Source of the DNA: a virus
Lineage: Duplodnaviria; Heunggongvirae; Uroviricota; Caudoviricetes
DNA: 43,179 bases
Strand: one strand, 5' to 3'
IMG/VR virus record: IMGVR_UViG_2561511241_000008
Span: 1-43,179 of that record
This document shows positions 4,102 through 10,719 of this stretch, one piece after another. The translations under genes were made by a program, and so were the position numbers. The notes below the pieces were generated by a model. The model searched no databases and was not told the DNA's origin. It was given only the letters and a program-made list of their open reading frames with translations. Every line of letters begins with the position of its first letter. The stretch's first letter is position 1.

Positions 4102-4158
4102 TTGATTTGCTCCAGATACAAGGAATGGCCGCAGCATGGCTACGGTGAATTTTGGGCA

Positions 4159-5881: not shown

Positions 5882-6115
5882 ATGGAGCAACAACAAGGGT
5901 CGCCATTATCATTGATTATTATGGTGATTTTTTTCGTTTTTATCTTTTTTATACCTGCGTTAAAAATATCCAAAAAGGCCGGGTTTGACTGGAAGATGGC
6001 TGTATGTTTAACAATCCCTGGCTTTAACGTGGTGGCGTGGCTCGCGCTTGCGTTCATGGATTGGCCAATTCACAAGTATCTACCAAAAGATGTGAATCGT
6101 AAGGATGCAAAATGA
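5882..6115 (+). CDS. Small membrane protein (two predicted TM helices), mnt operon
   Basis: 77 aa, hydrophobic stretches LIIMVIFFVFIFFIPAL and VVAWLALAFMDW; immediately follows mnt. Confidence 0.5.
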   Translation: MEQQQGSPLSLIIMVIFFVFIFFIPALKISKKAGFDWKMAVCLTIPGFNVVAWLALAFMDWPIHKYLPKDVNRKDAK

Positions 6116-6321
6116 ATAAAAAACAGTTTATTAAGTCAAAAACGTCAAGCAAGGAAGAATTAGAGAAGGAGCTAAACTCCCTGAAATATGCTCTGTGTCT
6201 GGTTTACTCAAGACTGCCAATGGAAGATAAAAACGCCATTTACAATGAAATGATTAGCAGCCTTGATTTTAACGATAGAGACCTAGCATCCCACCTCAAC
6301 AGCTTCCGCGTCCCTGAGTAA
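6112..6321 (+). CDS. Hypothetical 69-aa protein
   Basis: ORF overlapping the stop of the preceding gene (ATGA). Confidence 0.4.
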   Translation: MNKKQFIKSKTSSKEELEKELNSLKYALCLVYSRLPMEDKNAIYNEMISSLDFNDRDLASHLNSFRVPE

Positions 6322-6481
6322 TTCTGTTGCGGATTTGCTTCTTGCGGTGGTTTAAGCTGGAGAGCTTGGCTTCTGCTTCTGATATTTGCGCATCTAGATC
6401 TTTAAGCTCAAGATCTGAAAGTCGCTGGTCAAGCAGGGTTTGGTTCAACTCAATGTTGTTCAGGCGTTCTTCTATGGTCAT
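6296..6481 (-). CDS. Hypothetical small coiled-coil protein
   Basis: MTIEERLNNIELNQTLLDQRL... with AAGGAG 6 nt upstream of ATG at 6481. Confidence 0.4.
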   Translation of the reverse strand: MTIEERLNNIELNQTLLDQRLSDLELKDLDAQISEAEAKLSSLNHRKKQIRNRITQGRGSC

Positions 6482-6622
6482 GATTTCTCCTTGTTGAGGT
6501 TGATGTGAAACGATTGATTGTATACGCACTCTTTTGTTAGCTAGTAGCTTTGCTTAATCGCAAGATAAAGTTTCTGATTAATCCCTAAAAATCAAAAAAT
6601 AAAGTTAAAACAGGTACATGAT

Positions 6623-6826
6623 ATGGAATGGATCATAGGATTTGTTGTTCTTATCTTCATAGCCAGTATGTTTAAACCAAGAAGTTGCGATATCTGTGGT
6701 GCTGGATTTAAGAAAAAGTACTTCACATGGACTATCGATGGAAAGAAACAGCATCTTTGTCCGTACTGCAACAGTAAAATGGAGAGACGCAACAGCGATA
6801 GGCGCTTTAAGGATCGATTTGGTTAA
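6623..6826 (+). CDS. Small membrane-anchored zinc-ribbon protein
   Basis: N-terminal TM helix plus CDIC...CPYC (two CxxC pairs). Confidence 0.5.
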   Translation: MEWIIGFVVLIFIASMFKPRSCDICGAGFKKKYFTWTIDGKKQHLCPYCNSKMERRNSDRRFKDRFG

Positions 6827-6869: not shown

Positions 6870-7292
6870 TTAGTGCTTGTATAGCTTGAACTCCCTGTCG
6901 AGCCATAAGACATAAAAAGTGGCTCCTATCTTATAACCAACCATAGGTGCCTTAGAGCAAAATCTGAACGCAATGAAATCCACATCTTGAGTAACATGCT
7001 TAGGAATCGGAGCCTTTATCGCGTTTCTGGCAATTTTTTCCGTCCCAAGCCCGTGTTTATCAGATTTTCGTATCTCATCCCATGACATCTGACTTAACCT
7101 GAACAGCCTATCTGCAAATGCTGCCTTTTCATGCTTTTGGCAGCAATCTAGGCAATACCCCTTTTGTAGGTATCTAAGAGAAAATACAGGCGGACTTTTG
7201 TCTACATCATGAGATTCGTGATGGATAGAGAGGCCAACAGTAGCAGAGCTCTCTTTATCCCTCTGTTTTATTCTTCCCTTAACTCTAGACAT
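6870..7292 (-). CDS. Candidate toxin partner of the Panacea-domain gene
   Basis: 140 aa, starts 5 nt after upstream gene stop; C-terminal ...YVLWLDREFKLYKH; no confident family assignment. Confidence 0.5.
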   Translation of the reverse strand: MSRVKGRIKQRDKESSATVGLSIHHESHDVDKSPPVFSLRYLQKGYCLDCCQKHEKAAFADRLFRLSQMSWDEIRKSDKHGLGTEKIARNAIKAPIPKHVTQDVDFIAFRFCSKAPMVGYKIGATFYVLWLDREFKLYKH

Positions 7293-7297
7293 ACACG

Positions 7298-7741
7298 TCA
7301 GTTAATTAACGTTTTGAAAAAACCTTTCATAGAATCAAGTGTGATTTCTTGGCTAACCGCACCCTCAATGTAAGCATCTTTCCATGGCTGCTCTTCGTGA
7401 GTCATATTGCGCAGTTTCCAGGCAGAAAACTGACCATAAACTTTATACACCTCATCCAGCAATTCAATTTCATCTTCACTGAATTTTTTAGCGTCAAAGT
7501 TTTCTGGCGCAGGTAAAGCTCCGTTACCACAGTCCCTATATTTACGATACAATTCAGGAACTACTGGCCCATGCATCCAGGCTTCAATTTTCTCATTAAA
7601 TAGCGGCTTACCCAGAAGAACCAGAGAAAACCCTTGGGCATAATACGTCAACTTCTGAATTTTTAGGTTAGAGATAATGTCGCCACTTTCTTCATCGCAA
7701 TGCGCCAAGAAGTAGTCGGCGACATCAAAACAAGTGAGCAT
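7298..7741 (-). CDS. DUF4065/Panacea-domain protein (SocA/GepA-like antitoxin-type)
   Basis: motifs KIQKLTYYAQGFSL and WMHGPVVPELY characteristic of DUF4065; GGAGG 7 nt before ATG at 7741. Confidence 0.7.
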   Translation of the reverse strand: MLTCFDVADYFLAHCDEESGDIISNLKIQKLTYYAQGFSLVLLGKPLFNEKIEAWMHGPVVPELYRKYRDCGNGALPAPENFDAKKFSEDEIELLDEVYKVYGQFSAWKLRNMTHEEQPWKDAYIEGAVSQEITLDSMKGFFKTLIN

Positions 7742-8115
7742 AAACATACCTCCATCTTGATAGCCGCAGCTATGTATACAACTGTGTCAAGTTGCATTTA
7801 ATACCATAACAAAGCTGTCATCAATCCTTCAGAGGCTAACTTACAACCACTTTCTCGACACGTTTAAATCATTACGTTTCACATTTACTGCATTTTCGCC
7901 GAAGTTACCTATAAGGTAATGTCACATTTCCTGCAAGTTTCATGCAATGTTGAAAAGTGAGCTATTCACTTTTCTATGACACTAAACACCAAAAATAGCA
8001 CTTTTTGCTAAATCATTAGTCCAAGTTGTGGATGGTTTGTCGTTGACACGTTTTCACACACCACTCCACCAATACAGTATCATCTGGTATCCTGCTCAAA
8101 ACTAAGGAGGTTGGT

Positions 8116-8538
8116 GTGTTTGGTATATTAACGAGAAGCAAGATAAAAAAATTAAGGGCAGAACTCGCCGAAACACAAAAACTGGCTTCACATTTTTACA
8201 AAATGAAATACGACGCTGAAGAGCGTGCATTCGTTGAGTTATGCGATTTATCTATTCGTATGGGAGTAGAGCCAGATGTAGCGGCAAAAACTCAACAAGG
8301 CATTGATATACTTGCAGATGTTGTTTTAAACAGGCAATATGCGTTTTATCTAAACGAGAAGGCCATTCAGATTTACTCGCAAATCTTCCTCCTGGAAAAA
8401 AGAAGAGGAACTCACGATCGAGAAGAGTGGTTAAATGAAGTTGTTAAAAAATCTGGCTGGGAAGTTGTTTCATCAGAACTACCTCTTATTTGTGCTGATT
8501 TAATCGAAGAGGCAAAAGAGCGCCTATCCGATGGCTAG
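8116..8538 (+). CDS. Hypothetical 140-aa protein (position equivalent to P22 sieA region)
   Basis: GTG start with AGGAGG 5 nt upstream; convergent with gp16-like gene. Confidence 0.5.
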   Translation: MFGILTRSKIKKLRAELAETQKLASHFYKMKYDAEERAFVELCDLSIRMGVEPDVAAKTQQGIDILADVVLNRQYAFYLNEKAIQIYSQIFLLEKRRGTHDREEWLNEVVKKSGWEVVSSELPLICADLIEEAKERLSDG

Positions 8539-8562
8539 ACGAATCCATCCGTGGATTACTAA

Positions 8563-10719
8563 TTACTCCTGTGCCATTCCGCTTAGCGATGCCACAATTC
8601 CAGATCTTGCTAAACGCTGGAACTCTTCGTTTCCTAGTGCCTCGCGTATTGCTTTTACGGCGGCCTTATTTGCCATAAATCTGCGTTCCGCCGCCGCTAA
8701 TGCACCATCACTTGCCCCAACCTTAACTGCCTTTGTTGCCTCTTGAACAGCCTTTTCAATAGCGTAACGACCACTGCGGGATGCAGCTAACTTTTCTATC
8801 GTCCCTTTAGCTATAGATCCAGAAACAGCCCCTACAACACCGCCAACAATCCCTCCACCAGTAGTACCAACAATAGCCCCTGATGTTGAATTGCCTATTG
8901 CATTGAGAACTGTCATGACAGCTTTTGGCAGTCCTTGCTCAAGAGAGTTAATTGCCGGTATAGAGCGCCCCGTATGCTCTACATATCGCAGTGGTCTGGT
9001 TGCTGCTCTGGCAAGGTCGCTGTATGCCCTAGCAATCTTACCCATTTCTGGCGAGTGCCTACTAATGGCAGTAATGTTCTGCGGCGTAAGGATCGACGCT
9101 ATATGGAATACGCCAGCAGACTCTGATTTACCGCCACGCACCCCTTGCGATACCGCATCTTGTAATATTGATGCAATTGCAGGAGATCGCTCAGACTCTG
9201 GCAGCGCGCCAATAATCTGATGAAAATTTCCTGTCCCACTTTTTGATGAATTTTGCAAGGCTTTAATACCATCAGTGACTAACTGATCAGTTGCAAGGTT
9301 TCTAAACGCTGCTTCAGCCTGTTCTTGTGCTGTAAATCTTGCTTTTGACAGATCATTAGCTTTTTGCCAGTCATCAAGAAAACCGCCATTTTGAGCCATT
9401 ATGCGCATATCTTCCGTTGCTGCATCACGAAGCTCCGCCATGCGCCTTGCCGTATTTGCCTCACCAGACCTTATATACTTCTGCTCAGCGTCAGCAAGTT
9501 TACTTCGCCATGCCTTCATGGCATCAAACGTGATTCCTTTTTTACCAGTTTTAGCATAAGCAGATGCAAATTGTTTCATCTCAGGAGTTAGCGGCATACC
9601 AGCCAAAATATCACCCTGAATTGTAGCGTTCAGGTTTGACATTCTGGCCTTTGCGTCAGGCATCGTGGAGCGGACGCTATCCCATGCTTCCTTTTCTGAG
9701 TTCTTCATTTTATCAATACTTGCTAAAACCCTTTGTTTTATGGCTGCACTTTTTTCTGATGCAGATCCAGCCTCAGCACCAAGTTCATCAAGTGCTGAGT
9801 GGAATTTCGACTGTATTTCACTAAACGCCCTAGTATGTGCATCCTGAACAATTCCTGGTTCGGATGCCAATATCCCTTCAGCTTGTGCAATTCCACGACT
9901 TCCAGATCGCATTCCTGGTGTTAATGCGTTTATATCAATTCCAGCAGACTCAGCCGCTTTTGCTACATCTTCGGACACATTAGCGGCCTGACTGGCAATT
10001 GACTGACGCCCGGCACCTGACTTTGCCATCCTGGAAACATCATTAGCAGAATTCAGTGCTGCACCACCAAGAGCCTGTGAAACCCTTGGCGCAATAACGC
10101 GCCCGACACCTGAAAGAACGCCTTGAGCACCAATATTGATACCACCGTTAATGGCAGCATTTTGTGCAAAATCACCCTCCTGATTTGCAGCATCAGCAAG
10201 AGAACCGGCAATCATGTTTCCTGCGGAACCGATATCTCCAGCGAGCTTTGCTGTCGCTCCAGCAGCTTTTGCCGCTGTGCCAATTGGCAGGAGATACCCA
10301 CCAATTGTTTCACCGGCTTGCGCGTAAGGATCTGTCGGTCGGTCGACTGGACGATAGACATCATCCAATACTTTTGGCCCACCAAGCCCCTGACTGATTG
10401 CATTAATCAGGCTTGCGCCACCCTGCAATACGTCAAATGGTATGTTTACCAGACCACGACCAGCCTGTTCTGCAATTTGCCCTGCACTTTGACCACCTGT
10501 GAGCCAATCGCCAGCTTGTTGCATCAATGATGGTTCTTCTTTCTGCTGCTGAGGCGGAGGGTATGCTGCATAAAACTGATCTCTTGCTTCAGCCCATTTG
10601 TCACCAGCCTTAGGGGCAACAACCTCATCAAAATATTGCGCTTGAGCCTGTGCTTTCTGTTCTTCAGTTAACGCCTGATACTGTGGAGAGGCGATAACAT
10701 CTTTCCATGCTTTAGCCAT
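8563..10719 (-). CDS. Ejection (injection) protein, P22 gp16-like
   Basis: 718 aa, Gly/Ala-rich; last gene in P22-order 4-10-26-14-7-20-16. Confidence 0.75.

Follow-up and report, generated by a model that had tools for sequence, protein, structure and literature searches.

The sieA locus of P22-like phages as a putative expression socket for exchangeable genes, with a 140-residue protein as one of its cargos

We analysed a 43,179-nucleotide (nt) stretch of DNA, IMGVR_UViG_2561511241_000008 (Caudoviricetes; hereafter the window, meaning the whole stretch), and in it an open reading frame (ORF) of 140 amino acids (aa) that stands where phage P22 carries the gene of its exclusion protein SieA. 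The window represents an E. coli phage or prophage of the P22-like (Lederbergvirus) type, and its nearest relatives are E212, CUS-3, phiv205-1 and Kapi1. Sequence comparisons identify the sieA locus as a probable expression socket, that is, a site with its own 5′ adaptor at which unrelated genes, called cargos below, appear to be inserted exactly at the start codon. The 140-aa ORF is one such cargo, an uncharacterised interchangeable accessory gene of the P22 gene 16-9 locus; elements of this kind are already known. The initial annotation had placed the ORF at the sieA-equivalent position. The adaptor and the 3′ motif that it shares with P22 sieA make this equivalence more exact than could be seen at that stage.

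An adaptor and a 3′ motif frame unrelated genes

The P22 sieA gene is directly preceded by the sequence catGGTATCCTGCACAAAACTAAGGAGGTTGGT-GTG, which is common to the window ORF. Written generally, the shared adaptor is TCAT(CT)GGTATCCTGNNCAAAACTAAGGAGGTTGGT-GTG. Its core is 30 nt long with two variable bases, and the window and P22 differ by a single base at these two positions (CA versus CT). The window has a single exact copy of the core, at 8086-8115, where 0 were expected. A scan of IMG/VR with the 30-nt core gave at least 119 viral-contig stretches, which together with loci fetched earlier make up a set of at least 128 matches. All counts below that concern the adaptor or its cargo families hold among the 128 matches listed. 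The adaptor precedes at least 12 unrelated ORF families, SieA included, with lengths of 62 to 164 aa, and the start codon is GTG in 127 of the 128 matches. P22-type upstream sequence was found with 10 different cargo lengths, and one cargo was found with many upstream contexts. Upstream contexts and cargos are thus fully reassorted. The named cargos besides sieA are HK620 hkcB / epsilon34 gp14 (107-109 aa), an Sf6 gp38-like gene (129 aa) and an orf62-type gene (62 aa); further ones are 68-, 75-, 99-, 103/106-, 116- and 149-aa genes. Phage L is reported to carry an orf62 at this locus, which may be the 62-aa cargo.

The 5′ limit of the exchange can be placed to the base. Homology of the window with EC.P3 and E212 (99.8%) and with Emek and phiv205-1 (83%) spans the upstream Panacea gene (Table 1) and the whole gap between this gene and the ORF. 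It breaks off with the start codon, whose last base is 8118, and other genes follow there. Other cargos occupy this same point in EC.P3, E212, Emek, epsilon34 and P22. Seen from the cargo side, similarity of the window to ORF-carrying E. coli genomes begins only at about 8063-8100, and the upstream neighbours in these genomes are different, namely P63C or PIN-domain genes. Elsewhere, copies of the ORF share with the window only about 26-53 nt of upstream DNA. The adaptor region together with the 3′ junction was matched in 245 of 5,426 complete E. coli genomes, and the 140-aa ORF in 29 of them.

At the other end of the cassette, the motif CC[AG]TCCNTGG lies just before the stop codon of gene 16. 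It was found within 25 nt after the cargo stop in 7 of 12 cargo families and at 48 of 125 loci; these families include SieA and all six 140-aa copies. Around it, at 8542-8598, the window is 96.5% identical to HK620, 94.7% to SEN22 and 89.5% to CUS-3. Since the motif forms no convincing terminator hairpin, it looks like a 3′ recombination boundary of the cassette.

Overall, the alignments show free exchange of the socket cargos. Recombination at two conserved boundaries, the 5′ adaptor and the 3′ CCATCCGTGG abutting gene 16, would swap unrelated cargos. All these cargos belong to what Villafane et al. 2008 (PMC2629481) called the 'ant moron', a region already described as in rapid flux. In the searchable literature, neither a shared adaptor nor swapping exact to the start codon is described.

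One IMG/VR prophage (L078) carries two adaptors, at 2340-2369 and 4105-4134, about 1.8 kb apart. The two sockets have different upstream contexts and different cargos (129-aa and 149-aa types); sockets can therefore be stacked.

The socket illustrates how one accessory gene can take the place of another while the expression signals stay intact. In practical terms, a search with the 30-nt string yields at least 12 unrelated genes that are candidates for exclusion or conversion functions, and the single-copy assay established for sieA could be applied to all of them in parallel.

Table 1. Features of the window around the 140-aa ORF
Feature	Position	Strand	Remarks
5′ adaptor of the sieA socket	8080..8118	+	TCATCT-GGTATCCTGCTCAAAACTAAGGAGGTTGGT-GTG; Shine-Dalgarno AGGAGG at 8105-8110
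140-aa ORF, socket cargo	8116..8538	+	GTG start at 8116-8118; AGGAGG at 8105-8110, 5 nt before the start
3′ junction, cargo stop to gene-16 stop	8539..8562	.	holds CCATCCGTGG at 8545-8554
gp16-type DNA transfer (ejection) gene	8563..10719	-	phrog_770, 6.9e-214; ends the late-operon block
Candidate -10 elements	8078..8093	+	TATCAT at 8078-8083; extended -10-like TGgTATCCT at 8085-8093; inferred
Mobile conserved non-coding module	7888..8079	.	runs on into the adaptor (7888-8115, 228 bp)
Panacea-linked part of the gap	7748..7887	-	Shine-Dalgarno of the Panacea gene; probably its promoter
Panacea/SocA-domain antitoxin-like gene	7298-7747	-	Pfam PF13274, 2.2e-24; pair is phrog_1281 + phrog_8366
140-aa partner of the Panacea gene	6870-7292	-	phrog_8366

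The 140-aa protein and its family

Strong purifying selection acts on the 140-aa ORF, which is a genuine gene. Between alleles that are 94% identical in DNA, 19 synonymous and 6-7 non-synonymous changes were counted, and the ratio of non-synonymous to synonymous substitution rates (dN/dS) is 0.06-0.09, about 0.07. The product is identical or nearly identical to WP_000467047.1, which is annotated as a hypothetical protein and is not mentioned in any paper found. A word-indexed search of 5.8 billion proteins recovered near-identical sequences only. With HMMER, 11 full-length homologs of 138-146 aa and 33-47% identity were obtained from a representative library of 1.84 billion sequences. All 11 start with MF, aligned to the GTG of the ORF, and the aligned starts read ATG/GTG-TTT-GG (MFG), which confirms the GTG start. 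The family alignment has 14 invariant columns and the core VVLNRQYAFYLNExAIQ. Searching the 5.8 billion proteins with the family profile gave 17 clusters in total; the hosts, where the source was named, are E. coli, Serratia, Citrobacter and Pantoea, all Enterobacterales. The 140-aa protein belongs to a rare, uncharacterised family of Enterobacterales phages.

The initial annotation had called the gene an orphan and had proposed a remote homology search. Such searches found no homology to any characterised protein. Comparison of the 140-aa protein with Pfam, PHROGs, NCBIfam and PADLOC gave nothing meaningful, the best values (DUF6435, E = 0.19; a dihydroorotase, E = 0.21) being noise. When phmmer and the family profile were run against PDB sequences, nothing was found below E = 0.089. 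Scans of the 11 family members against Pfam gave no family common to more than one member, and a tblastn search of 50,697 phage records with the 140-aa protein gave no match. The family profile showed no relation to other socket cargos or to window proteins (best non-family E = 0.25). The gene is thus without relatives in Pfam, PHROGs, NCBIfam, PADLOC and PDB, and the word orphan comes close to the truth, although a small family exists.

The absence of annotation and of any known domain, the rarity of the ORF and its AT-richness are what one would expect of a chance open frame, or of a decaying remnant without function. This explanation is at odds with the dN/dS of about 0.07, with full-length homologs that reach down to 33% identity while keeping invariant residues and a conserved start, with a high-confidence structural model and with a strong Shine-Dalgarno sequence at ideal spacing. 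A spurious ORF is refuted as far as sequence analysis reaches, and the probability left to it is vanishingly small.

The protein has a mass of 16.2 kDa and an isoelectric point of 5.5. Its maximal 19-residue Kyte-Doolittle mean is 0.75 and no hydrophobic segment is predicted, in agreement with its earlier description as soluble. AlphaFold2, run on the 11-sequence alignment, gave an all-helical model with a predicted local distance difference test (pLDDT) score of 94.6 and a predicted template-modelling (pTM) score of 0.82. In this model, a long helical hairpin (residues 2-49 and 60-95) is followed by three short helices. The polar residues T59, R73, Q74, Y78, N80, E81 and Q85 are invariant or nearly so, and they follow a helical periodicity on the long third helix. 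Alignment and model together suggest that this conserved polar face is a binding face. Foldseek comparisons gave a best E of 0.2 against the PDB, using a weaker single-sequence model, and a best E of 0.5 against BFVD; neither match is informative.

Relatives of the protein were found in several kinds of phages. Homologs 35-52% identical are present in Serratia, Citrobacter and metagenomic P22-like phages, where they lie between the tailspike gene and gp16 and mostly abut gp16; the neighbouring gp16 homologs are just 25-59% identical. One Citrobacter copy (L129) keeps CTAAGGAGGTTGGT-GTG. From these comparisons, the position of the family beside gp16 appears to be old. In lambda-like siphoviruses, homologs have the opposite orientation and belong to a small accessory-gene cluster just upstream of the tape measure gene. 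This cluster contains predicted lipoprotein-like ORFs (LxxC after a hydrophobic stretch, assigned by eye) and, in L150, a Fic/Doc protein. In Pantoea and relatives, it lies between the tail-chaperone (DUF6246) and tape measure genes (L161, 6222-9045, with equivalents in L146, L149 and L150). In a P2-like phage (L144, 4178-7314), a 39%-identical homolog follows the gpA nickase gene and adjoins a PARIS-like pair (AriB, 5.4e-14; AriA, 3.6e-31). One further homolog is found in a degraded Pantoea prophage. The family therefore resides, as the loci show, in accessory islands of three phage architectures, P22-like, lambda-like and P2-like.

Within E. coli, the prophage of strain Ecol_AZ146 (L002) has its gene 20 interrupted by ISEc52 (9139-10308) and is therefore likely to be defective; the ORF is nonetheless intact, at 98.8% identity. 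Many other complete E. coli genomes carry the ORF at this same identity. A link of the ORF to one type of gp16 C-terminus was considered and rejected, because several types occur beside it (99.7%, 95%, 76% and not detectably similar).

The upstream DNA and the neighbouring genes

The 368 bp between the Panacea gene and the ORF (7748-8115) had been described in the initial annotation as a long AT-rich leader of the ORF. With a GC content of 38.6%, this DNA does fall below the 47.1% of the window, but it is no more AT-rich than the ORF itself (39.2%). On its plus strand there is no ORF of at least 40 aa and, at a limit of at least 20 aa, only short junk ORFs. More importantly, its attribution to the ORF does not stand. 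Of the 5,426 complete E. coli genomes, 84 have the leader (7760-8060) and 29 the ORF, but none has both. The leader is also missing beside the ORF in all IMG/VR copies and in the P22-like loci with distant homologs. The 370-bp DNA is therefore not the leader of this gene. It is made of a control region of the Panacea gene and of a separately mobile non-coding module of 228 bp. The earlier assignment of this long upstream DNA to the 140-aa ORF is thereby corrected.

The two parts behave differently. The left 140 bp have diverged in step with the Panacea gene, with about 85% identity to Emek and phiv205-1, and are missing from one E. coli locus (L157). A hexamer scan found a weak promoter candidate in this part, with a -10 element TATGGT near 7808 and a -35 element near 7832. 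The 228-bp module is at least 98% identical among the window, EC.P3, E212, Emek, phiv205-1 and three E. coli loci (L157, L158 and L159). It occurs without Panacea in L157 (3501-3730), and in L159 (3600-3830) it is flanked by baseplate and SLT-domain genes of a myovirus-like prophage, which shows that it is separately mobile. The module spans E. coli and Salmonella phages and is conserved far better than the Panacea gene beside it, which is about 83% identical. The uniformity of the module may reflect recent spread rather than constraint.

The module has some features that one might expect of a long regulatory leader comprising a promoter and a long 5′ untranslated region (UTR). Besides being so well conserved, it always stands immediately before the socket. 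A perfect 9-bp palindrome, GAAAAGTGA-n5-TCACTTTTC, lies within it at 7952-7974, and TCAC-type words are repeated in or near it, for instance at 7879-7892 and 7922-7935. Its RNA folds slightly better than shuffled sequences (z-scores of -1.8 and -2.2, a modest effect). However, the ORF does without this DNA in 29 of 29 E. coli genomes, the module occurs with many other cargos, and the left part follows the Panacea gene. No promoter-like site was found on the plus strand upstream of 8050. The palindrome has two substitutions in L159 that are not compensatory. A search of Rfam with both strands of 7600-8700 gave no match at E values up to 1, and a covariation test is impossible because all copies of the module are at least 98% identical. 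A long leader of the ORF is therefore quite improbable.

A similar conclusion was reached for the Panacea genes. Neither the E. coli genomes nor the fetched loci hold the ORF together with the Panacea-linked leader, which speaks against the ORF as a third component of the Panacea (PanA) module. The Panacea pair is a neighbouring module that is not functionally tied to the ORF.

Candidate expression signals of the ORF lie closer to it. In a relaxed hexamer scan of the plus strand (7700-8125), the best sigma-70-like candidates all fell within 8051-8093. In the P22 record, the 31 nt that immediately precede the adaptor are annotated as PsieA, and the window candidates are found at the equivalent position. 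By analogy with sieA, a weak promoter within the ~60 bp before the ORF would most likely drive its transcription, and PsieA-equivalent signals would allow its expression from the prophage.

As for the surroundings, the plus-strand ORF with its GTG start and AGGAGG, the Panacea pair upstream and the convergent gp16-like gene are all as first described. The ORF and the gp16-type gene are 24 nt apart, and the P22-like synteny around the latter is kept in all close loci. The partner of the Panacea gene (6870-7292, minus strand) is presumably the toxin of the pair; it shows weak similarity to PADLOC NsnC (1.8e-7) and to NCBIfam MAG6450 (1.9e-5, below the cut-off). Downstream of an mnt-like gene, at 5882-6826 on the plus strand, lie three small ORFs of 77 aa (hydrophobic), 69 aa and 67 aa (CxxC...CxxC). 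The positions and lengths of the first two match Emek orf77 and orf69, and none of the three has a PADLOC match. They are more unstudied cargo of the same variable region.

Possible function and comparison with known systems

We hold with high confidence that the ORF is an accessory gene carried as a cassette. Like a moron, it is present or absent at the same position among close relatives, and it differs in composition from the window. Regarding a promoter and terminator of its own, only the weak -10-like elements of the relaxed scan were found. Its product would serve an accessory (moron) function that benefits the lysogen. In the mechanism that we propose, the protein would interfere with a superinfecting phage at a cytoplasmic step, binding through the polar face of its third helix, which differs from the membrane block by SieA. 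For this best explanation as a whole, a socket cargo expressed from the prophage and acting as a cytoplasmic anti-phage accessory gene, we would put the chances of being right at about even. The anti-phage function specifically falls slightly short of that.

Several results weigh against the proposal. The anti-phage activity is deduced from context; homology searches pointed to no activity, and the 140-aa protein matched no PADLOC-DB 2.0 profile at E values up to 1. PADLOC also gave no matches for the variable neighbours in P22-like phages (P63C, the PIN pair, the YafO pair, a ClpP-like gene and the small window ORFs). A family of 17 clusters is tiny, so that contextual statistics are thin. 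The promoter candidates at 8051-8093 have poor -35 hexamers, and a strict scan gave 0 promoters. A terminator scan found none after the ORF, and a single terminator-like hairpin inside it, on the wrong strand. Among the cargo families, 10 of the 11 others have a hydrophobic transmembrane or signal-like stretch, mostly at or near the N-terminus; the 99-aa family was called hydrophobic by eye from its N-terminus, with a maximal 19-residue mean of just 1.01. The 140-aa ORF is the only one of the 12 families without a hydrophobic segment, and for this reason the analogy with a SieA-type membrane blocker may not carry over. Finally, counter-defence or host-modulating roles would also fit a gene that lies in accessory islands.

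Indeed, protein-binding inhibitors are typically small, soluble, helical proteins that have a conserved polar face. The 140-aa protein could thus be a counter-defence or host-modulating factor that inhibits a system of the host or of a rival element, such as a defence complex, a surface-structure machine or a regulator. None of the defence models recognises it. It adjoins PARIS in the P2-like phage, Panacea in the window, and PIN-domain and YafO-family toxin genes annotated in RefSeq elsewhere, and such neighbours could mean functional antagonism or cooperation. However, these neighbours vary freely, so there is no fixed partner. Furthermore, the ORF is oriented against the late operon in a prophage-expressed locus; early anti-defence genes usually sit elsewhere. 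The only characterised cargo of the socket, SieA, is an exclusion protein that protects the lysogen (PMC10883804). Overall, we regard a counter-defence role as unlikely.

Less probable still is a role for the phage itself, as a regulator of the immunity-I region or of late tailspike read-through, or as a helper of ejection proteins. The gene does stand constantly beside gp16 in P22-like phages and beside the tape measure gene in siphoviruses, both of which encode DNA-delivery proteins, and the region is thought to influence P22 tailspike expression (PMC2629481). But the counts given above for the ORF and for its two boundaries in E. coli (29 and 245 genomes) mean that most related phages lack the ORF, and each of 11 unrelated cargos can take its place. 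The gp16 C-termini beside it vary, and the homolog in the P2-like phage adjoins neither gp16 nor a tape measure gene. Pfam scans of the ORF and of the family revealed no helix-turn-helix or other DNA-binding signature.

If the cytoplasmic anti-phage reading holds and the protein is protective, this locus would offer a compact soluble protein in place of the membrane protein SieA, and with it a second approach, through a different mechanism, to the way in which P22-like prophages exclude rivals. A broader proposal joins two claims: that the family forms a new group of cytoplasmic single-gene anti-phage (exclusion or abortive) factors across P22-, lambda- and P2-like hotspots, and that the sieA locus is a general socket for unrelated exclusion genes. 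Taken jointly, these remain rather doubtful.

Of the known systems, P22 sieA is the closest. It occupies the same locus between genes 16 and 9, convergent with gene 16, behind the same adaptor and with a GTG start and the 3′ CC[AG]TCCNTGG, and it is likewise a single-gene module of low GC. Single copies of sieA exclude phage when they carry 85 bp (P22) or 106 bp (HS1) of upstream DNA (Leavitt et al. 2024, PMC10883804). The proteins themselves differ. There is no sequence similarity (BLASTP E = 15), and the SieA motif FxRYPxEAxxFNK is not in the 140-aa protein. SieA reaches a Kyte-Doolittle maximum of 2.51 with three segments, as compared to 0.75 and none. Set beside SieA proteins of types A, B and C, the 140-aa protein thus agrees in location, and shows neither the sequence similarity nor the several transmembrane helices. 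The ORF had first been described as unrelated to SieA in size. It is unrelated in sequence and membrane character, but the difference in size (140 versus 164 aa) had been overstated. The other socket cargos, all of them uncharacterised accessory genes, share with the ORF the adaptor, the position and the reassortment with upstream contexts. They are unrelated to it in sequence and have hydrophobic transmembrane or signal-like starts, whereas the 140-aa protein is fully soluble.

The P2-like defence hotspots (tin/old, the PARIS locus) and the lambdoid morons likewise offer a fixed slot with interchangeable accessory genes. In contrast to these, the swap boundary at the sieA locus consists of the 5′ UTR, the ribosome-binding site and the start codon, not of flanking core genes, and the cargo is a single small ORF. 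Integron cassettes provide an analogy only: promoter-less or minimal cargos are swapped at a fixed site and use resident expression signals. Unlike them, the socket has neither an integrase nor an attC-like structured site. Its two boundaries are stretches of plain homology, about 40 nt on the 5′ side and about 10 nt on the 3′ side, so that cargos are probably exchanged by ordinary or short-homology recombination.

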